64,000 bases of DNA from a virus. Shown here piece after piece: positions 3,337 to 64,000 of this stretch. The translations under genes were made by a program, and so were the position numbers. The stretch is from IMG/VR virus record IMGVR_UViG_3300045988_172839, positions 174,526-238,525 of that record; one strand, written 5' to 3'. Each line of letters begins with the position of its first letter. Within the stretch, counting starts at the first letter, position 1. The notes beneath the pieces are model-generated. The model had not been told where the DNA came from. It did no database searches and saw only the letters and a program-made list of their open reading frames with translations.

Positions 3337-3715
3337 CTATGACACAATTTAAGGAAACCTAAGACAATATATTCTCAATCTAGGACAGAAATTGAGAGAA
3401 TTAGGACAAATAAATCTCATTTTATGACAAACTTTAACCGTTTTAGGACAAACAAACCTTAATTTAGGACAAAAAGGCAAAGATTTATGACAAATTTAAA
3501 CAAAGTTATGACAAATAAACCTATTTCTACGACAAATAAAACCGTTTTTATGACAAAAAGACAAAGACTTAGGACAATTTTAAGTAAAGTTAAGACAAAA
3601 ATAACTAATCTTAAGACAGATTTTAGTACAATTAGGACAAGTGTATGACAGAATTACCTAATCTTAGGACAAAAAGTCTAAAATCTATGACAAAAATAAA
3701 AAGAGTTACGACAAG
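3337..3715. repeat. phased iteron array, about 19 copies of TTA(G/T/A/C)GACAA at roughly 21-bp spacing
   Basis: repeated ttaggacaa / ttatgacaa / ttaagacaa / ttacgacaa cores read directly; the spacers are A-rich and not conserved. Confidence 0.9.
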
Positions 3716-3940
3716 TCACAACTACTGCTTTTCAGAAGCCTAAATACAAGAAATAAGGGAGAAAAAGACACAAACTTCGCAAAAGTCTTGAAAATCTAGA
3801 TACCGCTGAGAGGGTTTAAGAACTAAATTTAGTTCTCAAAATCAAACCGCAGACATTTTTCCCTAAAATCAAGTTTAAAGGCTCTCATTTGCCCCGTGTC
3901 GCATTTTAAATTGAAGTTGGACATATTATACCATAAGAGG

Positions 3941-49693: not shown

Positions 49694-50401
49694 TTAAATT
49701 AAAATTTTTAAACCTTTGTGCGAGTAAAGATACCCCAGTAGACTAGTTTGAGTCGCAGCCTCAATTAAAGGTTTCTCTAACCAGTGAGACAGAGAGTCTT
49801 TTCCATAGGTCTTCTGAGTATAAGTCAATAATCGAAGTGATTTTAGAAAATCTACTAACCGAATAGAAGAATCCTCTACTAGAATAAATTTCTGCTCTTT
49901 TCTAAGTCGGTCTTTAATGAAATCTAACTGATTTAAGTTCAACTCAGGTAACTCAGAATTAAAGACATAGTATTCTTTATAAGTTTCAATCTTCTGTTTC
50001 AACTCAGAATAACTACTTATTTTAGAGAAAATATACTGAATCAAGTCTTCTAAATCTTTAGTGCGAGTTGAGAAGAGTTTCATAATTGCTAAATCTTCAT
50101 AAGACAAAATCTTAACTATTAAATTCTTAAACTCGTTTAGCTCTAAAGCACTATACTCATCAGTACCATACAAAGCAAAGAAGGTCTTTACATTGTTTGA
50201 GAACCCCAAACTCGCTAAATAATCTTTCGGTAAATAATCGAGAGAGCCAAGGTAATCAATATCAGAGGTTAATCTTGACTCTCCTAACAAAGCAAGTGCA
50301 GAACCTCCTACAATAAGCACATCAACTTTTGAGGATACCCCTTCTGACTTTAAATCTAATTCTCTCAATCGAGCTAAAATATCAGATTTGTTTAAAAACA
50401 A
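49694..50401 (-). CDS. nucleotidyltransferase-fold (AbiEii/MNT-like) protein
   Basis: VDVLIVGGSALALLGESRLTSDIDYLG matches the GG.AL ... R.T.DID NTase motif. Confidence 0.45.
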   Translation of the reverse strand: MFLNKSDILARLRELDLKSEGVSSKVDVLIVGGSALALLGESRLTSDIDYLGSLDYLPKDYLASLGFSNNVKTFFALYGTDEYSALELNEFKNLIVKILSYEDLAIMKLFSTRTKDLEDLIQYIFSKISSYSELKQKIETYKEYYVFNSELPELNLNQLDFIKDRLRKEQKFILVEDSSIRLVDFLKSLRLLTYTQKTYGKDSLSHWLEKPLIEAATQTSLLGYLYSHKGLKILI

Positions 50402-50413
50402 TATTAGACCCTC

Positions 50414-50629
50414 CTACTCATCTTTTTGCTCAAACCACCCACCGAGAGCCATCTGTATGTTCAGCCAAACTTTATGTGGTAGTTCTTCTTCGCTCATATC
50501 GGCAGAATATGTTCCAGTTTCAAAAGCAGAAATCAACTCAGTTAATTCTCGATACCGCACCTTGTCTGCCATAAAGAGCCTCTGAGCCTTTAGAAACTCA
50601 ATTACTCTCTTGTCTTTCTCACTTAGCAT
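50414..50629 (-). CDS. hypothetical protein
   Basis: 71-aa ORF; AAGAGG RBS. Confidence 0.45.
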   Translation of the reverse strand: MLSEKDKRVIEFLKAQRLFMADKVRYRELTELISAFETGTYSADMSEEELPHKVWLNIQMALGGWFEQKDE

Positions 50630-50663
50630 TTAAAACCTCTTATTTTGCTTTCTATCAAATTTT

Positions 50664-50730
50664 CTATCTGAGAGGTAGAAATTATCGACCTCAACTTTAA
50701 AATCGAAACTGGGGCAATCTGGGACTTCTG
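50664..50730 (-). promoter_or_regulatory. conserved intergenic element, copy 3
   Basis: tatctgagaggtagaaat ... ttaaaatcgaaactggggcaatctgggacttctg. Confidence 0.45.
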
Positions 50731-50762
50731 AGAGTGCTTTGAGAGTTTTATCTCAATTTACG

Positions 50763-50786
50763 AAAAAGAGCAGACAACTATCTGCT
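50763..50786 (-). terminator. intrinsic terminator closing the tnpB-ncRNA unit
   Basis: agcaga-caacta-tctgct hairpin followed by UUUUU on the minus RNA. Confidence 0.6.
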
Positions 50787-50818
50787 TTCTTTCTCTGTCC
50801 AAACTGCGTTTTTGGAAA

Positions 50819-50888
50819 TGAGAACTTGAGGAGTCGAACCTCAAACCTAGACCAACTGCAATTGGAGCAACAGTTCTTCTAGTTCTCA
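50819..50888 (-). other. tRNA-like element (perfect acceptor stem and T-arm, no convincing D-arm)
   Basis: 8-bp terminal stem TGAGAACT/AGTTCTCA; T-arm TGAGG-TTCGACT-CCTCA; possible anticodon-like arm GTTGC-TCCAATT-GCAGT that includes two G.U pairs. Confidence 0.35.
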
Positions 50889-51149
50889 CCTACTTTTCAG
50901 TTCTGCTGAAAAGTAGAAAATATGAAACATCACAAATCTACATCTGGAAAAGGTAGTCTTTAAAGACTAGTAAAAGTCATGTAAGAACCTTTCTAAGTAT
51001 AAATTTGTTCACACGAAATAATCAGTTTCGTGCTATATATTTAACACCTTTTAGAGTGGTAAATATTAAGTTCAATCTAAAGAGTCTCTTTGAACACTCA
51101 TAAAAACCATAAAATTTAAACCAAGCCTAAATTTTTATCATCGGTTAAG

Positions 51150-51328
51150 TGTCGGCACCTTTGGAACCCTATTAAATAACCAACTACCAAAATGAATTCC
51201 CACTAAGGGTTCACCAAGTAGTTTCATTTAGAACAGCATCAAATAAATATGTACCAAAACTATACTCCTTGAAGTCTCGTTGCCGATACACCTTTGGAAC
51301 CATATCAAATAAATATGAACCAAAACTC
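51150..51328. repeat. three dispersed copies of a roughly 45-nt hairpin-forming repeat
   Basis: cacctttggaacc(c/a)tat(t/c)aaataa..accaaaa at 51150-51194 and 51281-51328, with a degenerate copy at 51231-51262. Confidence 0.75.
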
Positions 51329-51571
51329 ATGTATTTAGTTTGAAAATAACCTATCTATTTAACAAAGTTGCAACATGAATGTTATTGTCTACTCAGAAGT
51401 TACTACTGGATACCCTCAATGAAAGCACCTCTTATGTACATTGCTTTTTGAGCCGAGAATAAGCATCTGGTTGCTTAGAAGCAATTCAAACCTCTGTTTG
51501 AATTAACAACCTCCTAACGAAGTCTCCAAACGAACTCCGAAACAGTTTAAGGTCTTATTTAGGACAAGGTT

Positions 51572-53020
51572 TTAATTAAAATATTCTTTACCTACAGATT
51601 TTAGGTCTGTAGTTAGTTGCGACATTGTAAGCTCTTGATTGCGCAAAAACGTATCAAAGTCAGACTTACAACCATCAATGTCTACTGTTACTCCATCTAA
51701 ACCTACATGCTGTAACAGAAAGGCTGAATATAAGTCACGTTGAACTAAGTCATCACCAATCAGTTTTGAACGTGTACCTAATGAAACTTTGTTGTACTCT
51801 TCAGTTAAGTGGTTTAACTGGGAAGCCTTTACTTCTCTTGTATTTGCAAGAATAAATGTTTTACCTTGGTACATGGTTTTATAACGAATCTGTTCAATCA
51901 ACATAGACGGTGCTTTGTGTAAAAGAGTTTTACCAAAGCGTTTCTTAGACTGGTATTTACCTGTCTTTTCACTTACTTTCGTTTCCTTTGTACGAGCTTG
52001 TAAACCTTTAAAGGACATTTGCTCTACTACGAAAGTTGAACCCATACGCACAACTCTGTTAGCTAAAGTTTTATGAGCCAACTTACGTTGCTCCGCTGCT
52101 TTACGATGTAACTCACTAAGTTCTGCTTTTGTCTTCAGATACTCATTAGAATCTACCCAAGTTTGGCGCACACCCTTTTTAATAGTACCATCTGCATTGT
52201 ACTTGTGAGGATTGTTAGCCCTACGTTGACGATCAAGTTTGCGACTTAAACGTATAAGTTCTTGTTGATCTAAGTCAACTCCCCTTGCTAGTTCCTCTAA
52301 CTCAGTCTGATAATAAGAGGATACCGCAATCGTAGATGTACCAATATCAATTCCCACAGAACCTTCAAGTTCGGAAGTGTATTTAGTTGGGAGTGTTCCC
52401 TCAAAAATAGACTGTACATAGTAGTTCCACTCCCCAAACTCAAATCTGCGAACTAAACGGTTGTACTTCAAAGTATTACGTAAAACTTCTTCTTCAAAAA
52501 CATCGTTTTCGTTACGAATGGTACATGAAACTTTCTTTTTGCGAGTTGAGATAGTGAAAACATTACCTTTTATACTAACTCCTGTAGTTCCGCTACTCTC
52601 AAAGGAAGTCAAATTACCTCTAAGATTCACTTTCTCAGCACCTTTAGCAAACATCACTTTACTAAATGCACCCCATGCTCTAAAACCTAACATATAAGCA
52701 ACCTTAGAAGGAATATAATCACTGTAATTACGAGCATTACGGTAGTCATTTGCAAACTTACCTGCTGTGAACTTACCTACTAAGTCATACTTAGTACCAA
52801 GATCTTTCAAAATTGCATTACGCTCTTTTCCTTTAGGGAACTTATAGGCTTTCTTATAAAGGGGATCTTTCTTCATCTTAGAGTAACGTTTTAACAACGC
52901 AATTAAAGTCTTCTTGTAAATATCGTCTGCCATACGGAAACGCTTTGCAAACTGCTCTTTGTGAGACTTGTTTGCATTTAATTTACGAGTATAGACAAAT
53001 AGTTGTTTACCTTTCTCCAT
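51572..53020 (-). CDS. tnpB: TnpB-like RuvC-fold protein (IS200/IS605 OrfB family) lacking the zinc-ribbon cysteines
   Basis: GIDIGTSTIAVS (RuvC-I D), FVVEQMSFKGLQ (RuvC-II E), LVQRDLYSAFLL (RuvC-III D); the usual TSQxCxxCG position reads ASQLNHLTEEYN; strong AAAGGAGG RBS. Confidence 0.75.
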   Translation of the reverse strand: MEKGKQLFVYTRKLNANKSHKEQFAKRFRMADDIYKKTLIALLKRYSKMKKDPLYKKAYKFPKGKERNAILKDLGTKYDLVGKFTAGKFANDYRNARNYSDYIPSKVAYMLGFRAWGAFSKVMFAKGAEKVNLRGNLTSFESSGTTGVSIKGNVFTISTRKKKVSCTIRNENDVFEEEVLRNTLKYNRLVRRFEFGEWNYYVQSIFEGTLPTKYTSELEGSVGIDIGTSTIAVSSYYQTELEELARGVDLDQQELIRLSRKLDRQRRANNPHKYNADGTIKKGVRQTWVDSNEYLKTKAELSELHRKAAEQRKLAHKTLANRVVRMGSTFVVEQMSFKGLQARTKETKVSEKTGKYQSKKRFGKTLLHKAPSMLIEQIRYKTMYQGKTFILANTREVKASQLNHLTEEYNKVSLGTRSKLIGDDLVQRDLYSAFLLQHVGLDGVTVDIDGCKSDFDTFLRNQELTMSQLTTDLKSVGKEYFN

Positions 53021-55414: not shown

Positions 55415-55686
55415 AAAATAACCTCTCTATAACCTAAAGCTAACTTTTCATCGCTATCATCAACTGCATTTTCTGGTACACCTACTGAGTTCCAAGTAGG
55501 CATTACTCCAGTTTCACGGTACAAGTCATCTAAAGAGTCAGCAAATAACTTACCACCTCGAAATGGGTTACTATCGACTTTTCTAGGATAAAATACAATG
55601 TGTACATCCCAAAAACCATTTTCTTGTTCTTTAAAGAAAGTTCTTACACCTTTCTTGGTATATCTTTTATCAAATAATTGTTCCAC
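55411..55686 (-). CDS. hypothetical protein
   Basis: 91 aa; GTG start with AAGAAGG upstream. Confidence 0.45.
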   Translation of the reverse strand: MEQLFDKRYTKKGVRTFFKEQENGFWDVHIVFYPRKVDSNPFRGGKLFADSLDDLYRETGVMPTWNSVGVPENAVDDSDEKLALGYREVIL

Positions 55687-55718
55687 ACTTAATAACCTTC
55701 TTTCATTTAATTTATTTA

Positions 55719-55747
55719 ATTATAACATAAAAACCTTGAAAAATCAA
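55719..55747 (-). promoter_or_regulatory. sigma-A-type promoter (TTGATT-N17-TATAAT, TGn)
   Basis: hexamers at 55742-55747 and 55719-55724; spacer nearly identical to the promoter at 54667-54695. Confidence 0.6.
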
Positions 55748-55942
55748 GGTTTAAATGAGGATACCCTCTCAATATCTTATTCGGTTTTCCCCAACGAGGT
55801 CTCCACTGAAAACCCTAGACAAAGCTTGTCAATAAACCCGTGGGTAGTCTAAAAACTTTATAACGCTTAAGTATACTCTAAGTAACACTTTTATATTAAC
55901 TCATGTTATACATGTGTGGTTTTATAGTCTTTTCCTTGACAA

Positions 55943-56013
55943 CTAAGGTAGCTGGATTCGAACCAACGATGAAGGAGTCAAAGTCCTTTGCCTTACCTCT
56001 TGGCTATACCTTA
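55943..56013 (-). tRNA. tRNA-Gln (anticodon TTG)
   Basis: hand-folded cloverleaf: acceptor TAAGGTA/TACCTTA, D GCC/GGC, anticodon arm AAGGA-CTTTGAC-TCCTT, T-arm GTTGG-TTCGAAT-CCAGC; no encoded CCA. Confidence 0.85.
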
Positions 56014-56208
56014 ACAATAAAAGATGTAGCTGATTGGTACAGCGCTCTTCCCAATCACTTGCGCCAAACACGTTCGTATCCAGACTACATCGTAACAACA
56101 TATCTTCCTAACAACGAGGATGGTATGTTGTCACCAAGTATACTTGGGGAAGCAAGAACCCAATACCACTGTTTCTCACCAGTGAACTAGTTTCTCTCCA
56201 TAATCCCA

Positions 56209-56281
56209 TGCAGATTAACGGACTCGAACCTCTGACCCTCTGATTACAAATCAGATGTTCTACCAACTGAACTAAATCTGC
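56209..56281 (-). tRNA. tRNA-Thr (anticodon TGT)
   Basis: acceptor GCAGATT/AATCTGC, D GTTC/GAAC, anticodon arm TCTGA-TTTGTAA-TCAGA, T-loop TTCGAGT; one mismatch in the T-stem. Confidence 0.8.
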
Positions 56282-57168
56282 TCACTAAGTTTGTGGTCAA
56301 GCACTTAGAAAACTTGTCAAAGGACTCCAACCCTTCGAAGAAAGCACCCACGGTTAACCAATCTCATTAGGTTCCGAGTATCTTGGAATTATGTGCTTTT
56401 TATTTTAGGATTCCCACCTATAGACCTTCTACCAAAGCCTATCCCCGTCGAGTATTGAGCATACCCAGTCAACTTTGTTACTGCTTGGTTTTCACTAGTA
56501 GTTGACCTAGAGTTTCTTTTTTGGGTTCTAAAGAAACTTAAACCTCAAGTTTGTGTAGCTGAGAGGTTCGTGCGCACGTCCTCTCACTTACCCCAATCAC
56601 TAAGCGCGACTGAACTACATCATTTAAAAGAGAAAATAACTTTTCTCAAATGCTCGATACCGAAGTGTTAGAGCAAACACCTCAGCAATTTATTTTCTTG
56701 GATTTTTACTTAAGGGGTCAAGGGGTGGAAAAGACAAACCGTTGCCAAAACTGCGCCTTGCGTCCACCTAGTTTTAATGTACACTCAACTAGGATTTACC
56801 GCCTGAGTTTATCGACTTCATCGGATTATTGGTCACGTATAAAAGGTATTTACTTATAGCTTCAATTTTGTAAATGTGTTCTCCCCTAAAAGTTATTTTG
56901 ACAAAGCAGGGAACAAGCAGTTAGAAGTTCTTAACACGTTTTCCATAAATGACTATGTTAGACAGGGAGCCATGTTATATCAGATTTACAAACAAAATAC
57001 AAGTAAATTCGGGTTTAAACCCTCACCCGCGGTGTACACCGAAAACCCTAATCAGAAGCTCGTCTAAGATACCGTGAGGTAGCACCTTAAAATCAACGCT
57101 CGTTTAACGTCCAAAAGACGAAACAGTTTAGGTGTCTTATTTAGGACAATAATTACTAAGTAACAAAT
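56282..57168 (-). ncRNA. about 0.9-kb gene-free, comparatively GC-rich structured segment between the methyltransferase gene and tRNA-Thr (large ncRNA candidate)
   Basis: only plus-strand shadow ORFs; stems such as CCTAGTT/AACTAGG, GGTGGA/TCCACC and CGC-AAG-GCG; starts with the 30-nt box shared with the tnpB 3' flank. Confidence 0.4.
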
Positions 57169-57972
57169 TTAGTTCTTCTGAAAAACACAAACCATTTTCG
57201 TATCAAAAGGAACTAAGTCTAGCTCAAAGTAATTCTGTAAATAAGCTAAATAACTCTGATCCTTATATCTATGAATACCTTGCAACTGCAAACAATCTTT
57301 CCAAGGATACGCAATCCACTTTATGAAGGCATTTGTAACATTATATTGCTCTTTTGACTCTCGACTCAAAGACTTCAAACCCCAAACTGTATGAAAAATA
57401 ATCTCATAAGCATTTTTAACAGTAGTTACAATAGAACCGTCTTCTTTTGTCTCAACAGTATCAATAATCGAGTTTTTCTGAAGTTCTTTAATCCAAGTAT
57501 GTATTTCTATCTCACTTTGTTTTGAAACAGGTCGGAGCGTAAATGTCTCAGATACCAAATCTGGGTTAGCCCAATCTCGAATAACTAGAGAACCACCTGT
57601 TTTTAAACTATTTACAATCATGGATATGGTTTCTGTACGTTCTTGACGAGTTAAATAACTCATAATTTCGTGGAAAACACTAGAGAGATAAATTATATCA
57701 AATTGAAGTTCCCCTTTAAGTAACTCTTGTTTAGTTACCACATTTACACCCATACGAGATAAAGTAGTTTGCACAGTCGGAGAAATATCATAAGAATAGT
57801 AATTAGTACCTGTAGAAACTACATTAGCTATAAACTCATAAGAAATACCAGAACCAAAATCCAAAAGTGTAACCCCCTCTCCAAGAAATGGCTCAACTAC
57901 CTTAAATTTAGACTCAGCAGTTTGGTTCATTCTTTGAATATAGCTATTATTATCACTTAAATAGTTATCCAT
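57169..57972 (-). CDS. class I SAM-dependent methyltransferase
   Basis: VTLLDFGSGISYEF (motif I), FDIIYLSSVFHEI, LKTGGSLVIRDW. Confidence 0.65.
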   Translation of the reverse strand: MDNYLSDNNSYIQRMNQTAESKFKVVEPFLGEGVTLLDFGSGISYEFIANVVSTGTNYYSYDISPTVQTTLSRMGVNVVTKQELLKGELQFDIIYLSSVFHEIMSYLTRQERTETISMIVNSLKTGGSLVIRDWANPDLVSETFTLRPVSKQSEIEIHTWIKELQKNSIIDTVETKEDGSIVTTVKNAYEIIFHTVWGLKSLSRESKEQYNVTNAFIKWIAYPWKDCLQLQGIHRYKDQSYLAYLQNYFELDLVPFDTKMVCVFQKN

Positions 57973-58216
57973 TAAATACTCTCTCAGTTTTTCTACATGT
58001 TTAGAAAAATATCAATTATTAGACTTCCATTTTTGAAGAAATCTGATAACTTGTTCTACTTCTGACTTAGATAAATCGTAAGTACCACAGTCATACGAGC
58101 CTTTAGTTTGACAAGTAATAGATACCCCATCATTATATCCTTGTATGGTTTAATCTCCATCAGCATTCTCAAAATCTAATTGACTCATAATTACACATTT
58201 CCTTTTCTCATAGTTA

Positions 58217-58287
58217 TGTACCTTGTAGGAATCGAATCTACGATCCTCAGCTTATGAGACTGAAGATCTACCAACTGCTACCATTCC
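58217..58287 (-). pseudogene. tRNA-like element with CAT anticodon loop but no matching acceptor strands
   Basis: good anticodon arm TCAGT-CTCATAA-GCTGA and T-loop TTCGATT, but 5' GGAATGG cannot pair with 3' AAGGTAC and the D-stem is defective. Confidence 0.35.
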
Positions 58288-58303
58288 ACTTTAATTTAAC
58301 AAA

Positions 58304-58374
58304 CACAGGCAGTAGGAATTGAACCCACACTGACGATTTTGGAGACCGTAGTTCTACCTTTAAACTATGCCTGT
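58304..58374 (-). tRNA. tRNA-Trp (anticodon CCA)
   Basis: acceptor ACAGGCA/TGCCTGT, anticodon arm ACGGT-CTCCAAA-ATCGT, T-arm GTGGG-TTCAATT-CCTAC. Confidence 0.9.
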
Positions 58375-58378
58375 ATAA

Positions 58379-58459
58379 TGGAAAGAGAGGGATTCGAACC
58401 CCCGAACCCGAAGGAGCGGATTTACAGTCCGCCGCGTTTAGCCTCTTCGCTATCTTTCC
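58379..58459 (-). tRNA. tRNA-Tyr (anticodon GTA), long variable arm
   Basis: acceptor GGAAAGA/TCTTTCC, anticodon arm GCGGA-CTGTAAA-TCCGC, T-arm GGGGG-TTCGAAT-CCCTC. Confidence 0.9.
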
Positions 58460-58470
58460 GAATATTAAAA

Positions 58471-58833
58471 CTAAGTTTGACCATACAATAGACTATTACT
58501 AAACTCAAGCACAACCTTGAAAACTGTATCTATGTTTAGAGTGAAAAGTAAGATAAGTAGTCCAAATAAGATCTTTGAGACTAGTGAAGGTAGAATATCT
58601 TCAATCGAAAGACCTAATAATTCTAGTTTAATCTCAATTAGATATTTGAAAATTATCATCCCACCAAATGCAATGGCAACCGCACCATCAGTATTAGGTT
58701 GAGGAAAACCAAAGTAAATATGTAATTTATACAAAATCACCCAAGCTAGTAAACCTAAAGCAGAAGAAAGGATACCACCTGCAAGGTAAAGTAACGCTTC
58801 GTTTCGTAAATCTTTAAACCAACTACCTTCCAT
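58471..58833 (-). CDS. small membrane protein
   Basis: 120 aa with 3 hydrophobic helices; its RBS (AAGAGG) lies inside the anticodon-loop remnant of the upstream tRNA 5' half. Confidence 0.5.
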   Translation of the reverse strand: MEGSWFKDLRNEALLYLAGGILSSALGLLAWVILYKLHIYFGFPQPNTDGAVAIAFGGMIIFKYLIEIKLELLGLSIEDILPSLVSKILFGLLILLFTLNIDTVFKVVLEFSNSLLYGQT

Positions 58834-58880
58834 ATTCCAACCTCTTCAAACCAATGCTCTACCAACTGAGCTACCTTTCC
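58834..58880 (-). pseudogene. tRNA 5' half (Phe-GAA-like) with no 3' half
   Basis: GGAAAGG-TA-GCTC-AGTTGGTA-GAGC-A-TTGGT-TTGAAGA, then runs straight into the ATG of 58471..58833. Confidence 0.5.
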
Positions 58881-58930
58881 TAAAATGTGGAGACTCCTTA
58901 GAGGAGAGTTCGCACATATAAACCAACAAA

Positions 58931-59003
58931 CGGTCTCGAAGGGAATTGAACCCTCGATCTCTGCCGTGACAAGGCAGCGCGATAACCACTACGCTACGAG
59001 ACC
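58931..59003 (-). tRNA. tRNA-Asp (anticodon GTC)
   Basis: acceptor GGTCTCG/CGAGACC, anticodon arm CTGCC-TTGTCAC-GGCAG, T-loop TTCAATT. Confidence 0.9.
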
Positions 59004-59007
59004 TAAT

Positions 59008-59089
59008 GTGATAGGAAGGTCTTGAACTGACTTCCCTAGAAGTAACGGCACCTCTCCTTACTGCATCAACCTACAAATGCTTCTATCAC
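59008..59089 (-). other. atypical 82-nt tRNA-like cloverleaf with extended, bulged arms
   Basis: terminal stem GTGATAG/CTATCAC, D-like GCAT/ATGC, two roughly 7-bp bulged arms with 7-nt loops AGAGGTG and AGTTCAA. Confidence 0.3.
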
Positions 59090-59100
59090 TTAACAAAAAA

Positions 59101-59385
59101 TTAAAAGCCACCAAGAACTAAACATTCTTCCAAAGGTCTAAGAACGAGGTTTTGAAATTTAAGAAAATCCGGATACCCTAAACTATCTCTATAATGTAGC
59201 AACTGTCTTGAGAAGTAAAACTCTGTACCGTTGTAGTAAACATTACCAAGATATTCTCCAGTATGTCGATTACGCACCATAACTGCTTTAGTACCTACTA
59301 CAAAATATAGGTCTTTAACTCTAGTTCTATGTTGGATAATCAAGCGTCTAAGACTTACTGGTAATAGTTTTCTGACTCGTTTCAT
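59101..59385 (-). CDS. hypothetical protein
   Basis: 94-aa basic ORF; AAAGGAGAAG RBS. Confidence 0.5.
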   Translation of the reverse strand: MKRVRKLLPVSLRRLIIQHRTRVKDLYFVVGTKAVMVRNRHTGEYLGNVYYNGTEFYFSRQLLHYRDSLGYPDFLKFQNLVLRPLEECLVLGGF

Positions 59386-59900
59386 TCTACTTCTCCTTTC
59401 TTTTTGATAAATAATATGACTTCGGAGGGAGTCCCACCCACGACACCTGCGCTTGGTGTATTGTAAACATCAAAGCCACGTGTGTTTTTAATTCTGATAA
59501 CTAACTAGACCTTTGTCCAAGGCTTGCAACACACAAAACACCGTAAATCCACTAATGCATCTATACCCCTACACAAGAGGTAAGACCATTAGCGCAACTT
59601 CCAACTCGTGCACAAGTTGGAGGGCTGGCTGTCGCCCTTGTCGTTGCCGACAATACACCATACAGGATTCGAACCCGTGTTACTGCCGTGAAAAGGCAGT
59701 GTCTTAACCCCTTGACCAATGGTGCTTAAGGAGGGCAGGTCTCTGTTTTCCAACAGACGGATTTGGATGCACTGATCGACTGTGTACTTTTATTTGGGCA
59801 GCCCACGTTTCCCTTGTAGACAAATATGTGCAGATGTTTGGTAGTCGTTACCAAACGCTCAGTCAAATCTATCTACTGCAAAAATTAACTTCACGAATTT
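59386..59900 (-). ncRNA. promoter-driven roughly 0.5-kb non-coding unit with tRNA-Glu embedded between structured flanks
   Basis: promoter at 59901-59929; flanks contain GNRA-capped helices (TCTGTT-GGAA-AACAGA, GTCG-GCAA-CGAC) and CCAACT/AGTTGG. Confidence 0.4.
59654..59725 (-). tRNA. tRNA-Glu (anticodon TTC)
   Basis: acceptor GCACCAT/ATGGTGT (one G.U), anticodon arm CTGCC-TTTTCAC-GGCAG, T-arm ACGGG-TTCGAAT-CCTGT. Confidence 0.85.
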
Positions 59901-59929
59901 ATTATAACACAAAGAGTCAAGTTTGTCAA
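59901..59929 (-). promoter_or_regulatory. sigma-A-type promoter (TTGACA-N17-TATAAT, TGn)
   Basis: hexamers at 59924-59929 and 59901-59906. Confidence 0.65.
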
Positions 59930-59985
59930 TAAGTTTTAATTAAAAGTTCACTATTTACTAAATTAGTTAGAAACTTACCGAAAGC

Positions 59986-60348
59986 TTAGAGTGCTGTGTG
60001 ATACTCTTTTAATAGCCTAAGTTCCCTTTCATATTCACGTTGAAGTTTTAAACGCTCCGATTTAGTTTCTTCGGTCATAGGGATTTCAAAAAGCATAGAA
60101 GCATAATTGTGAGTAAACAACTCATAGGTATCATTGAAGTCTACAACAACAAACCAAAGAAACTTAACCTCAGTAAGAGTTGTTTTAGTGTTTAAAGTTA
60201 GTTGAATCCCACAGTTTAGAATCTCATTTAAAGGGTTTGAAGCAAGTTGCTCAAAAGTGAATCCCATATGTTCATTTTCATTGCTCTGAATAGTCTTATA
60301 ATCCCCAAACAAAGGACTGAGAGAAGAAGTATCTAACAAAGAAATCAC
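59986..60348 (-). CDS. hypothetical protein
   Basis: 120-aa ORF; start uncertain. Confidence 0.45.
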   Translation of the reverse strand: MISLLDTSSLSPLFGDYKTIQSNENEHMGFTFEQLASNPLNEILNCGIQLTLNTKTTLTEVKFLWFVVVDFNDTYELFTHNYASMLFEIPMTEETKSERLKLQREYERELRLLKEYHTAL

Positions 60349-60577
60349 ATCCTACTTAGACAAATACCCATATTTCTCAAAAATCTTTAATAACCTAGTG
60401 TAGCTCTTAGGGAGTGAAAAGTAGCGAACTGTATCACTATATAAAAAAGTAGAACCCTCACTCAACCTAAGTAACTTCATAACAAAACTCCTTAAAAATC
60501 TTTATTTAATATAGTATACCATATAAGTCTAAGAATTACAAACATAAAAAAAAGTAAGTAAATCAACTAAGGCTTAC

Positions 60578-60823
60578 TTACAATACTTCACTTGAAGGTT
60601 CATATTCTTTTAAAAGTTCATCTAAATCATAGTTTGGAATATCTAACTGATCAGACTTATTTCTTAAAATAATCTTCCCATCTTCAAAAATAAACTCTAC
60701 CTCATTACCTTCAGACAAATTTAAGTTTTCTAAAACTGTAGTTGGTAGAAGGATACCCTTACTGTTTCCCCATTTAGTAACCTTTTTAGTTCCTAAACTG
60801 CATCGATAATGTTCTTTAACCAT
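60578..60823 (-). CDS. AbrB/MazE/SpoVT-family DNA-binding (antitoxin-like) protein
   Basis: VTKWGNSKGILLPTTVLENLNLSEGNEVEF is the swapped-hairpin barrel signature. Confidence 0.65.
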   Translation of the reverse strand: MVKEHYRCSLGTKKVTKWGNSKGILLPTTVLENLNLSEGNEVEFIFEDGKIILRNKSDQLDIPNYDLDELLKEYEPSSEVL

Positions 60824-60837
60824 CTAAGAATCACCCC

Positions 60838-61188
60838 CTAATCATCAATTAAATCTAAGTATAAAGAGCTGAGAAGATTTTCCAAACTATCAACTGCTGC
60901 TTTATTGCAATCAACACGTAAATACTCATCATCTGGGAAAATATCTAACCAATCTAAACTTGTAGGGTAAAAACCTGTCTCTTCATAAATCTGTGCAGAA
61001 ACTTCATCTAAAGTTTCCGCTAGTTTGTCTACATCAGTAGGTTTAAAATCACCTAAACCACAAATTGCACCGTCATCTTCCCAATAATAAGGATTGATAC
61101 AAATATGGACACTACAAGGATATTCATTTAAAGCTTCTTTTGCTAAAGTTTTAGTTATAAAAGACATTTCAATTTCCTTATCTTTCAT
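60838..61188 (-). CDS. acidic hypothetical protein
   Basis: 116 aa, strongly Asp/Glu-rich. Confidence 0.5.
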   Translation of the reverse strand: MKDKEIEMSFITKTLAKEALNEYPCSVHICINPYYWEDDGAICGLGDFKPTDVDKLAETLDEVSAQIYEETGFYPTSLDWLDIFPDDEYLRVDCNKAAVDSLENLLSSLYLDLIDD

Positions 61189-61195
61189 TAGTTTA

Positions 61196-61562
61196 TGGAG
61201 CCGGTGGGAGTCGAACCCACGTCCAAACGACCTTTCCAGCTAACCTTACTGCGCACTGCTACGTTTTAACATTCTACTTTTAGGAAACGCACAAAGCTAA
61301 AAGTTATATCTCTCTTTAACAAACTAAGTTGAGAAATCTTAGTTGCGAGTACCGATGTTTATAGCAACTAAAAGATACCGGTACTTATCTTAGTCGCTCG
61401 TCTATTCGACTTTTTACTTGTGTTGAGTGACAACTAAGCCGAAGCTTAGGCAACCATTTCAACTGGTGCATTGTTATTTGCAGTTATGTTTAGGTTGGTG
61501 ATTACGTCACCACTCGGTACGAGGTTAAAAGGTACAATCGCCTGTCGAATCCAAGCGACCCC
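61196..61562 (-). ncRNA. ssrA: tmRNA (ssrA)
   Basis: 5' GGGGTCGCTTGGATTCGACAGG and 3' GTGGGTTCGACTCCCACCGGCTCCA form a tRNA-Ala-like acceptor with a G3.U pair and a T-arm; internal ORF ..GCA AAT AAC AAT GCA CCA GTT GAA ATG GTT GCC TAA followed by a UUCG-capped helix; about 367 nt. Confidence 0.85.
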
Positions 61563-61578
61563 TCATTAAGATAAATCT

Positions 61579-61607
61579 ATTATATCAGAAAGATGGTTAA
61601 ATGTCAA
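61579..61607 (-). promoter_or_regulatory. sigma-A-type promoter (TTGACA-N17-TATAAT, TGn) for the tmRNA
   Basis: hexamers at 61602-61607 and 61579-61584, about 17 nt upstream of the mature 5' end. Confidence 0.7.
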
Positions 61608-61874
61608 GGGTTATTTGTGCTATTCTCAGCTTTTGTAGGTGTTTTTGCGAATAAAAGTAAACCAAACAAACCTGCGAACCACAGGAACATCAAGGATACT
61701 CCTCTCAATTATAACTTACTATTGAGTTCATATTGGTTAAATAGAGTTGAAACATGAGAAACTACATCAATCGGAAAACTATACTCAATAGTAATAAACA
61801 AGGTAAATGCGAAGAGGAAACATAAAACTATGTAAACATTCAAAAACTTAATTTTCATTCAAGACCTCTATTTA

Positions 61875-62162
61875 TTAAGCTATCGTCCGTTGAGACAAGA
61901 ACGAAAGAAGTTCTTCTGGGGTTTGGCATCTCATCAACCGTTTAAATTCTAAACTATCTGCAATTATAGACTCAAACTCCATGTTTTGAGTTGGATCATA
62001 ATAACCTATAGTCAAACAATTACCCTCATCTACTCTTATCTGAGCAGACACTCCCCACTCACTATCGAAATCTTCTAAAACTACTTCTAAGTGTCTTTGT
62101 AACTCACTTAAACTAGACTCTAATTCGTTATGTAGTTTCATCATTTTGTTGTAGGTTAGCAT
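61875..62162 (-). CDS. hypothetical protein
   Basis: ATG at 62162 preceded by GAGGGAAGGG; the track ORF extends to 62207. Confidence 0.45.
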   Translation of the reverse strand: MLTYNKMMKLHNELESSLSELQRHLEVVLEDFDSEWGVSAQIRVDEGNCLTIGYYDPTQNMEFESIIADSLEFKRLMRCQTPEELLSFLSQRTIA

Positions 62163-62341
62163 TTTGTGGATACCCTTCCCTCTTAGATATAAAAAGTTTA
62201 CCAGCAAGAAGTTATACCAGTAAACGGGAACATTATGTGATTTATATAGCGGTTCATAACCTTGAGGAGCTTAACTCTAGAAAATAAACACCTCAACAGC
62301 ATTCTTGACTTCTGTTCAATCGCACCGCTACGAAAATCTTA

Positions 62342-62429
62342 CGGAGAATAAGGGATTCGAACCCTTGCGCCAGTTACCCGACCTAACGATTTAGCAAACC
62401 GTCCTCTTCAACCTCTTGAGTAATTCTCC
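62342..62429 (-). tRNA. tRNA-Ser (anticodon GCT)
   Basis: acceptor GGAGAAT/ATTCTCC, anticodon arm ACGGT-TTGCTAA-ATCGT, long variable arm, T-arm AAGGG-TTCGAAT-CCCTT. Confidence 0.9.
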
Positions 62430-62925
62430 AAACTAAAGGGAACCTCTTTGAAAAGAGGATACCCTTACGGTTTGTTTTCCGAAGTAAACCTTACTTCTAC
62501 ACTTCACGTCGCGAACTAGAGTGTAACGAGAGTTCTTTAGAACCCTAACGGTTGTACGTTAGGGGATTTTGTCAGTCTCTAAATGACGATGTTTAGGAAC
62601 CAATATAGGTTCTATAAGTTGCTAACCTTTTACAGTTAACAACCTTCCCGAAAGGAGGATTTAATGAAAGCTAACCTCTCTCCCATTCTCATGAGGAGAG
62701 GAATGATGTAAAAACCTTTAACAGTTCTTACACCAAATAAATTAGAAAAAGAAGGTCTAACTAAACGCTAGAACCAGCCTAGCGAGGAACCAATCAAAAC
62801 CAACTAGACTAGGAGGTAGCGACCTTTGAAAGCCGATACCCCAGTAAACAAAATGCTCTATAACTCTGCTGCACATTTTAAAACATTAGGAGTTATTTTC
62901 TTGAATTGAAATTACTTCAATTCAA
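62430..62925 (-). ncRNA. structured 0.5-kb spacer between the two tRNA-Ser genes (two decaloop hairpins)
   Basis: no ORF; hairpins at 62618-62643 and 62708-62731, plus a 10-bp stem at 62900-62924. Confidence 0.35.
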
Positions 62926-63016
62926 CGGAAGATGTGGGATTCGAACCCACGCGCCGTTTTACCGACCTGACGGTTTTCAAGACCGTTCCCTTATAGCCAG
63001 ACTTGGGTAATCTTCC
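62926..63016 (-). tRNA. tRNA-Ser (anticodon TGA)
   Basis: acceptor GGAAGAT/ATCTTCC, anticodon arm ACGGT-CTTGAAA-ACCGT, long variable arm, T-arm GTGGG-TTCGAAT-CCCAC. Confidence 0.9.
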
Positions 63017-63467
63017 ATGAGGGAAGGTTTCAACCCGTGAAGATTGAAACCCCACCCTAAATTCTAAGAGGATTCATGGAAAATGTGAAAACCATGAATT
63101 TTCCCACACAACAAAGTGTGGTATAACGCAAAGACCTTTGAAAATCATTGCGCTTGAATAAAATTAAGAGGTATTTTGAAAGCAAGTCCTGATCACGAAA
63201 CTCACTTATCAACCAAATTCACTTTAGTAGTAGTTTAGGACATGACTTCACAAAATCCTTGAAAGACATTGTTACTGACTCTAAAATTTGCAACTACTAA
63301 AGCTACGACTCAGCAACCTTCTTCAGATTGCCAAGCCTAAAGGATACAAATCTCACCTACCGAGAAAATACTTACAAATAAACTCAGTAGGCTACGACTC
63401 AACAACCTTATTCAAATTGTTGAGCCTAAAAGGTAACACATACAAAAAATATACATTACATTTGGCA
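63017..63467 (-). ncRNA. structured 0.45-kb spacer with a duplicated roughly 50-nt hairpin module
   Basis: gctacgactca(g/a)caacctt..ttca(g/a)attg.. repeated at 63302-63350 and 63391-63440, with compensatory stem changes. Confidence 0.35.
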
Positions 63468-63542
63468 TCGGAATTGCAGGATTCGAACCTACGACCCCGT
63501 GTTCCCAAAACACGTGCGCTAACCAAACTGCGCTAAATTCCG
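63468..63542 (-). tRNA. tRNA-Pro (anticodon TGG)
   Basis: acceptor CGGAATT/AATTCCG, D GCGC/GCGC, anticodon arm CGTGT-TTTGGGA-ACACG, T-arm GTAGG-TTCGAAT-CCTGC. Confidence 0.9.
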
Positions 63543-63558
63543 ATAATATAAAAGGTAA

Positions 63559-63697
63559 TGAGGATAGAGGGAATTGAACCCTCGGTCATAAGCAGTCGCT
63601 GCCTTACCCCTTGGCTATACAACGACCTAGTCGTCGTAAAAGGATTCGAACCCGTGGTCTACGGTCTCTTATTGCCTTACCACTTGGCTATATCCTC
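63559..63697 (-). other. composite nested tRNA-like element (a permuted tRNA-like module inside the anticodon stem of another)
   Basis: outer 7-bp stem GAGGATA/TATCCTC; two D-arms (GCC-AAGTGGTAA-GGC, GCC-AAGGGGTAA-GGC); two T-arms (TTCGAAT, TTCAATT); inner hairpin TACGACG-ACTAGGT-CGTTGTA; ATAAG/CTTAT helix at the anticodon-stem position. Confidence 0.6.
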
Positions 63698-63789
63698 GAT
63701 AATTAAAATACGAAGAGCAAGAGATTTGCTCTAAGAACTTCTGCAACCCTCTTTCAAGCATTGCACGCCGTTGTGGCACAAAGACAAAT

Positions 63790-63891
63790 ACCACCGCAAG
63801 GATTCGAACAGTTTTCAAAGAAAACTCCGCTGATCTACCGGCTCATCTATGTAAGTCATGACTCAAACATAAGCACCATGCTATCGGTGGT
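63790..63891 (-). pseudogene. tRNA-derived element (decayed tRNA-Lys-like core closed by a new 7-bp terminal stem)
   Basis: ACCACCG/CGGTGGT terminal stem; the interior GAGCCGGTAGATCAGCGGAG..TTTTCTTTGAAAAC..TTCGAATCC resembles tRNA-Lys(TTT) but lacks a T-stem and its own acceptor. Confidence 0.3.
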
Positions 63892-63932
63892 AATCAGGAT
63901 TTAAACGTTTAAACTTCCACTTCGCAATGGAA

Positions 63933-64000
63933 CTCCACCAACTGGGTTCGAACCAGTGACATCATGATTAACAGTCATGCGCTCTACCAACTGAGCTATG
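63933..64000 (-). tRNA. tRNA-Asn (anticodon GTT), 5' end truncated by the window edge
   Basis: D GCTC/GAGC, anticodon arm CATGA-CTGTTAA-TCATG, T-arm ACTGG-TTCGAAC-CCAGT, 3' acceptor TGGTGGA. Confidence 0.8.

Follow-up and report, generated by a model that had tools for sequence, protein, structure and literature searches.

A non-coding segment ahead of two phage tRNA genes

The DNA analysed here (the window) is a stretch of 64,000 nucleotides (nt) from a virus, positions 174,526 to 238,525 of IMG/VR record IMGVR_UViG_3300045988_172839, and the element in question is an 887-nt interval at 56282-57168, which is bounded by a methyltransferase gene (57169-57972, minus strand, ending at 57169) and by a minus-strand gene for tRNA-Thr. 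An earlier reading of the letters alone (the sequence-only reading) had described this interval as a structured non-coding segment without a credible open reading frame (ORF), and on the latter point it was right: the only ORFs inside are short (33-69 aa), lie on the plus strand and are broken by stop codons or truncated in related contigs. Coding potential was rejected, these antisense ORFs being without conservation. The richness in G and C that had been noted by eye is confirmed by counting (G+C fraction 0.385-0.43 across most of 56200-57199 versus 0.29-0.355 in the flanking genes), and the segment does run into the genes for tRNA-Thr and tRNA-Gln, both on the minus strand and neither of them encoding CCA. 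The ORF-free stretch extends beyond both tRNAs, down to 55754. The promoter of the next gene, at 55719-55747 on the minus strand, is of the sigma-70 type (TTGAYT-N17-TATAAT) and belongs to a family of ten copies in the window. Between the conserved modules described below and the tRNAs, all of which lie on the same strand, there is no sigma-70 promoter and no strong terminator; a 31-nt box stands upstream of them and a hairpin with a T-run downstream.

Related contigs of up to 287 kb were fetched from IMG/VR and metagenomes with the methyltransferase protein and two DNA patterns, and the segment proved to have conserved minus-strand counterparts in about 25 distinct contigs of related phages. 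BLAST of the 1482-nt non-coding stretch of the window against these contigs disclosed a mosaic, in which the order is the 31-nt box, a 5' hairpin, a pseudoknotted motif (PK), M1b, M2, Y (67 nt), M3b and tRNA-Thr (Table 1). The distance from the box to tRNA-Thr falls into classes of about 860-866 nt (the window and 10 others), 646 nt (L008), 502-524 nt (L041, L051 and L058) and 377-380 nt (10 versions), and these classes differ by entire modules, whose presence or absence varies independently among phages that are 84-98% identical. M2 is missing from L008 and from every short (about 378-nt) version, M3b from L041, L051, L058 and every short version, and Y1 from L041, L051 and L058, while M1b (allele type 1 in the window) is swapped at the same site in L051, L053, L055 and L058 for an unrelated allele, type 2, of about 152 nt. 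Both PK and Y have a second copy further downstream in the same putative transcription unit. M2 and M3b have a single copy per contig, always at this locus, and a mobile multi-copy element was rejected on that account. Long invariant stretches are retained among contigs that differ elsewhere. What holds of the earlier description is thus a conserved and structured non-coding RNA (ncRNA) on the minus strand beside tRNAs; its treatment as one 0.9-kb unit does not hold, since the modules vary independently.

Table 1. Features of the non-coding stretch, from high to low coordinates in the window
Feature	Coordinates	Strand	Remarks
Box TTGTCCTAAATAAGAC-ACC-TAAACTGTTTCG	57119..57149	minus	31 nt; predicted promoter-like transcription signal
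5' hairpin GUUU-CGUC-UUUUG-GACG-UU-AAAC	57102..57124	minus	RNAalifold; overlaps 3' end of box
PK motif copy B (PK-B)	57008..57082	minus	P1 CCUCA/UGAGG, P2 CGGU/ACCG, pseudoknot UUCGG/CCGAA
M1b	56836..57007	minus	172 nt, A+U-rich, long terminal closing stems; allele type 1
M2	56621..56835	minus	215 nt; several hairpins, 10-bp stem, 3' hairpin
Y element copy 1 (Y1)	56553..56620	minus	68 nt; loop UGCGCA
M3b	56282..56552	minus	271 nt; ten helices, closed by AGGUUU/AAACUU
tRNA-Thr (UGU)	56209..56281	minus	67.3 bits; CCA not encoded
Y element copy 2 (Y2)	56024..56090	minus	67 nt; loop AGCGCU; 9 nt upstream of tRNA-Gln; covariance model 78.3 bits
tRNA-Gln (UUG)	55942..56014	minus	ARAGORN and Rfam; tRNA-His there in several relatives
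PK motif copy A (PK-A)	55780..55847	minus	paralogue of copy B, 71% identical; downstream of tRNA-Gln
Terminator-like hairpin, T-rich tail	55731..55752	minus	probable end of unit; overlaps promoter of next gene (55719-55747)

Comparative evidence for separate folds

The evidence for structure is comparative, not thermodynamic. The whole 887 nt had a minimum free energy z-score of -0.85, M3b one of 0.09 and M2 one of -1.17, and only the two 67-nt Y elements reached about -2.4; the whole segment and its large modules fold no better than shuffled sequence, so that a thermodynamic signal was rejected and the many local helices seen by eye are, on the single sequence, no more than chance would give. 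In the alignments, on the other hand, substitutions in Y, M2, M3b and PK are strongly biased to the retention of base pairs, and compensatory changes together with strand-specific G.U pairs support the helices of all four. As a control, the percentage of paired cells in the alignment was compared with the same count after the partners had been slid. It was 91% versus 30-43% for Y (24 distinct sequences, with 12 of the 24 pairs changed on both sides), 95.3% versus 34-48% for M2 (10 pairs changed on both sides) and 99.6% versus 33-54% for M3b (8 such pairs). Every module has a terminal helix of its own that closes it, and no covarying long-range helix between modules was found.

The copies of Y were gathered by a regular-expression scan, which yielded 24 distinct sequences of 66-68 nt at two sites per locus, the Y2 site in relatives being 9 nt upstream of either tRNA-Gln or tRNA-His. 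In the consensus, the element is closed by a nearly invariant 7-bp stem (UGUAGU/GCUACA) and carries two hairpins, one of 8 bp and the other of 9-10 bp, the loop of the latter always including GCGC. Its middle (8-bp) helix consists mostly of G.U pairs, which are impossible on the opposite strand, and the Y covariance model scored 45-89 bits on the minus strand versus about 20 bits on the other, where the palindromic hairpin alone is seen. This model found no copies elsewhere in the window nor in a distant methyltransferase clade.

Several helices of the sequence-only reading reappear in this comparison. GAGAGG..CCTCTC has covariation support and is helix 3 of the Y element, CCTAGTT/AACTAGG (helix 2 of M2) is likewise supported by covariation, and GGTGGA/TCCACC is retained through G.U wobbles in relatives. 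The 10-bp stem of M2 has five covarying positions, and its loop UGCUC can pair with a downstream GAGCA in a candidate pseudoknot. The 3' hairpin of this module covaries strongly, is rebuilt with a different sequence in each subgroup and looks like a terminator in some relatives. A T-box-like reading of the GGUGGA stretch in M2 was rejected, as it matched no model. In M3b numerous G.U pairs are invariant; read from the opposite strand they would be A.C. Among 22 distinct sequences of the 5' hairpin, one pair is C-G 13 times and U-A 8 times; the remaining pairs are retained. Covariation in M1b is weak (4 compensated pairs), which makes it the least secure of the modules.

The palindromes GGTGTACACC and GGGTTTAAACCC, once proposed as hairpins, did not survive the comparison, since as such they are not conserved (GGGTTTAAACCC is palindromic only in the window and in one near-identical contig); both supply strands to PK. 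A search with nhmmer found exactly two PK copies in the window. PK-A, whose stems are P1 CCCA/UGGG and P2 AGGUCU/AGACCU, is conserved in nearly all relatives, and the two copies have in common a pseudoknot in which the loop UUCRG pairs with CYGAA after P1. Two central, neighbouring pairs of this pseudoknot are 100% paired in 32 distinct sequences, one of them as C-G (27), U-A (4) or U-G (1) and the other as G-C (21), A-U (9) or G-U (2). The PK pattern is absent from 185,579 bacterial species genomes.

These data bear on the view, which we regard as very improbable, that the segment is non-functional debris (tRNA genes in decay and scars of recombination) from a tRNA array that evolves fast. 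The array does turn over (tRNA-Gln gives way to tRNA-His in relatives, and the window holds a tRNA-Met pseudogene) and its insertions come with flanking duplications, but a bias to pair retention and invariant stretches among otherwise differing contigs are not what decay would leave. Decayed tRNAs were also rejected by direct search, with no match to the tRNA model in the segment, even below threshold, at E<=10. Y itself has a 7-bp closing stem, just two hairpins and loops of 4-6 nt; ARAGORN did not call it as a tRNA, and RF00005 gave no match at E<=10. The comparison leads us to predict that the segment is a series of RNA modules, five or more in number and not described before, that fold separately and stand ahead of two phage tRNA genes, and not a giant RNA of the GOLLD/ROOL type.

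The 31-nt box and the relation to tnpB

The sequence-only reading had noticed that the segment begins with a box also found 3' of tnpB, and this sharing is real, the second copy in the window lying at 51538-51567, right after the tnpB stop codon. In relatives there is yet another copy, between tRNA-Met and the methyltransferase gene. A scan of IMG/VR for TTGTCCTAAATAAGAC(N3)TAAACTGTTTCG located the box in 27 unrelated phage or prophage contigs outside the clade (L074-L099 and L101), in all of which it stands directly after a stem-loop and T-run and precedes an ORF of at least 60 aa by 29-113 nt. Capsid scaffolding proteins (PF06810, PF14265) are encoded by the majority of these ORFs, and the others are late genes. 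Because of this position behind a terminator and in front of a scaffold gene in so many unrelated contigs, the box is a likely transcription start signal and not the end of an insertion sequence (IS). It probably serves phages in general as a signal where strongly expressed units begin, and a promoter or an activator site is the simplest reading. A text search of the literature for the box sequence gave nothing relevant, and we put the box forward as a candidate late-transcription signal of which no description was found; common as it is to unrelated phages before scaffold genes, it may mark one that is new.

A form of the box, TTGTCCTAAAYAAGAC-N-TAAAC, is common to many otherwise unrelated phages and prophages, always behind a terminator and ahead of scaffold or capsid genes, and in Clostridium phage vB_CpeS-CP51 (L102, 1501-1544) the box halves are 18 nt apart, not 12-13. 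The string TTGTCCTAA occurs 8 times in the window versus 1.1 expected, always on the minus strand, with two occurrences in the boxes and six in an array at 3360-3735. This array is made up of at least 13 tandem 21-nt repeats, each with TTGTCCTA or TTGTCATA, the box core, on the minus strand; its appearance is that of iterons or operators, a hint at a DNA-binding factor.

The copy behind tnpB might also mean that the modules derive from IS200/IS605 elements, either as orphan or decayed omega-RNA-like scaffolds, possibly serving TnpB (51572-53020) in trans, or as non-autonomous mobile elements. Pseudoknotted modules of 170-270 nt with a presence/absence polymorphism do resemble omega RNAs, and in relatives true IS605-orfB-I and -II RNAs stand as orphans between tRNAs, with no tnpB ORF near them; in size range and in behaviour, as inserts present or absent in inter-tRNA spacers of close relatives, these RNAs match M2 and M3b. 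However, the IS605-orfB models (RF03065 and RF02998) had no match in the window, none in the segment at E<=10 and none downstream of tnpB at E<=5, the modules are single-copy and at this locus only (M2, M3b), and the segment follows the methyltransferase gene, with tnpB 4 kb off. Moreover, the homology to the region downstream of tnpB ends after about 60 nt, that is, the box and some 25 further nt, and the downstream RNA region of tnpB relatives in Bacillaceae is different. The latter difference, and the presence of the box in many tnpB-less phages before scaffold genes, led us to reject the box as the end of an IS or omega RNA; an IS end, which the sequence-only reading had named as something that might account for the segment, gives way here to a widespread phage signal. 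We consider an IS200/IS605 origin of the modules quite improbable.

The orphan RNAs of the relatives merit a word of their own. Strong matches to IS605-orfB-II (RF02998) and IS605-orfB-I (RF03065) were found between tRNA genes at 660-806 and 1473-1680 of L008 and at 13807-13942 of L041; there is no tnpB ORF near them, they are absent at the counterpart positions of the window (about 63107 and 62434-62548), and around the orfB-I insert about 115 nt are duplicated. The occurrence of orphan omega-type RNAs in a TnpB-encoding phage is worth attention. In the window, the tnpB gene is directly followed by a second ORF-free stretch of about 0.94 kb (50630-51571, minus strand), which opens with the same box and contains three spaced repeats of 66-67 nt at 51156-51325. 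Near 50830-50905 there is a tRNA-like T-arm and acceptor end that ARAGORN did not call. An Rfam search over 50400-52200 at E<=5 gave no match.

A putative RNA-tRNA unit and its alternatives

The explanation that we favour, with moderate confidence, is a non-coding ncRNA-tRNA unit of about 1.4 kb whose modules are freed by tRNA processing. To the same degree we lean towards viewing the interval 56282-57168 as the 5' two-thirds of such a unit, which would run from about 57149 to 55731 on the minus strand of a large phage. Transcription would start at or just after the box, cross the modules and both tRNAs, and stop at the terminator-like hairpin (55731-55752). In Bacillota, precursors of tRNAs without an encoded CCA are cut by RNase P and RNase Z; the relatives of tnpB in this phylum are the only hint to the host. 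These two host enzymes would excise the CCA-less tRNAs, and the excision would thereby free the flanking modules as discrete RNAs, namely a 5' RNA of at most 0.87 kb, a Y2 spacer RNA of about 190 nt and a 3' RNA with PK-A, with extra cuts between modules being possible. Since each has its own closing helix and there are several pseudoknots, the modules should be compact and are probably stable, and once freed they would act in trans as small RNAs. Certain of their unpaired residues never vary (GCGC in the Y loop; AGCUU and UAGGG in PK), a sign that the modules may have specific partners. That the IS605-orfB-I and -II RNAs of the relatives are similar inserts, present or absent in other inter-tRNA spacers of the same array, is in keeping with this proposal.

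Several points weigh against it. Every step beyond conserved structure on the minus strand is one that we infer, with promoter, ends and processing all deduced from sequence alone. The spacing between TTGTCC and TAAACT in the box, 12-13 nt, is a misfit for a sigma-70 promoter. The folding energies of single sequences are unexceptional and M1b shows little covariation. The alignments have little depth, with 12-24 distinct sequences that are closely related, and the structures tested were derived from those same sequences, which makes the controls lenient. Finally, insertions and deletions also hit the peripheral domains of single large RNAs, and modularity is no proof of separate RNAs.

The last point leads to the possibility of one giant multi-domain RNA, either the whole transcript or its 0.9-kb 5' part, with embedded tRNAs and a variable periphery, analogous to GOLLD but unrelated to it in sequence. 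GOLLD sets a precedent, as it has a variable 5' region and a conserved 3' region, sometimes carries tRNAs in the linker and is found near phage tRNA islands (PMC12286853). Here too the segment is phage-encoded, ORF-free, highly structured, pseudoknotted and beside or around tRNA genes, with tRNA-Thr and tRNA-Gln inside the unit and a phage tRNA island as its setting; homologous PK motifs bracket the tRNAs, and the Y loops are 6-nt palindromes (UGCGCA and AGCGCU) that could form kissing dimers. Yet no helix covaries between modules, each of them closes on itself, M2, Y1 and M3b are each dispensable without change in the rest, no core is conserved across the whole segment, and the transcript would be cut by tRNA excision. 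That modules are inserted or deleted speaks against one obligatory fold of the GOLLD kind (about 800 nt or more), and we consider a giant RNA unlikely. A more specific version, in which PK-B and PK-A would clamp the ends of a new class of giant RNA, the Y loops would drive homotypic kissing or multimers, and M2 and M3b would be exchangeable decorations, appears to us slightly less likely still.

Membership of GOLLD or ROOL themselves, which the sequence-only reading had proposed from the context, is another matter. The context does match (a phage and a tRNA island), and Rfam includes profiles of both families (PMC12286853). Nevertheless, cmscan of the window with Rfam 15 at the gathering threshold returned only tRNAs and one transfer-messenger RNA (tmRNA), and over the 1.8 kb of 55600-57400, at E<=10 and with permissive filters, only the two tRNAs and noise; the GOLLD and ROOL covariance models matched neither these sequences nor any of 10 related loci. 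A divergent member of either family is thus extremely improbable.

The phage T4 tRNA gene cluster encodes small stable RNAs (species 1 and 2, rnaC/rnaD), and the arrangement proposed here resembles them by analogy. In both cases structured RNAs other than tRNAs stand among phage tRNA genes in one transcription unit (here a putative one), and release by the nucleases that mature tRNAs is expected for both. The modules have no sequence relation to species 1 and 2, however, and they are more numerous and larger; two of them are pseudoknotted, paralogous copies bracket the tRNAs, and release and stability are predictions for them.

Small pseudoknotted RNAs that flank phage tRNA genes are also found among the theta ribozymes, minimal relatives of the hepatitis delta virus (HDV) ribozyme that lie beside phage tRNAs and have been proposed to aid the formation of tRNA ends (PMC10879173). 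An HDV-like reading of PK was rejected because the strand order differs (P1-P2-PK5'-P2'-P1'-PK3' versus P1-P2-P3-P3'-P1'-P4-P4'-P2'; the comparison was by strand order, not by a theta descriptor), and PK does not adjoin a tRNA 3' end. A hammerhead reading of Y was rejected by inspection, since its junction (0, 7 and 1 nt) lacks CUGANGA and GAAA. None of the Rfam ribozyme models (hammerhead, HDV-like, twister, pistol, hatchet) had a match at E<=10 in 55600-57400.

Alternatively, the modules may be purely cis-acting leaders and spacers that insulate the tRNAs, help their folding, time their maturation or act by attenuation or termination, without any function in trans. Y is 3-10 nt upstream of a tRNA wherever M3b does not intervene, and the 3' hairpin of M2, terminator-like in some relatives, is 5 nt upstream of tRNA-Thr in L041, L051 and L058. 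Still, about 870 nt of elaborate conserved structure far exceeds the needs of a leader, the 378-nt version suffices before the same tRNA-Thr in relatives, and no copies of Y, PK, M2 or M3b accompany the remaining eight tRNAs of the window. We hold a purely cis-acting role to be about as unlikely as the giant RNA.

The locus adds unrelated and well-supported folds (the 67-nt three-helix element, the duplicated pseudoknot motif and the modules of 215 and 271 nt) to a niche, the phage tRNA island, that already holds puzzling large RNAs such as GOLLD and ROOL. Structured ncRNAs in such islands are already known; it is these folds and their modular, duplicated layout that are new. The modules are absent from Rfam, from GenBank phages, which share with the stretch only the DNA of the tRNAs, and from species-representative bacterial genomes, the catalogue of candidate viral RNAs (10,006; PMC10690425) being outside this comparison. 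Close relatives with differing subsets of modules amount to natural 'deletion mutants', with which the need for each module, its release and its multimerisation become testable.

The sequence-only reading had further suggested that the methyltransferase could act on the RNA or on the tRNAs. The protein is a generic class I S-adenosylmethionine methyltransferase without an informative homologue, and in other phages its relatives of about 70% identity have protein genes directly after them and no RNA segment. Since ORFs directly follow the gene in this distant clade, the adjacency of methyltransferase and RNA is not conserved, and the idea of the RNA as a substrate found no support. The pairing of tRNA-Met with the methyltransferase gene, by contrast, is conserved as far as the distant clade. 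In relatives an intact tRNA-Met stands about 65 nt ahead of the gene; at this site the window has a minus-strand tRNA-Met(CAU)-like sequence (58215-58290) whose acceptor stem is broken and which both ARAGORN and Rfam failed to call.

Two spacers of the unit on the minus strand, 56091-56208 (tRNA-Thr to Y2) and 55851-55941 (tRNA-Gln to PK-A), are also ORF-free and are exchanged for other sequence in relatives, for example for a strong hairpin GGTAGGTCTGTA...TACAGACCTAC in L004 and L007. The surroundings (55700-64000) are dense in RNA genes, with nine tRNAs called by ARAGORN, one tRNA cut by the end of the window and a tmRNA, only small ORFs separating them; 10 tRNA and tmRNA genes lie inside 8 kb. 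The tmRNA, at 61196-61562, is phage-encoded and has the tag ANNNAPVEMVA.

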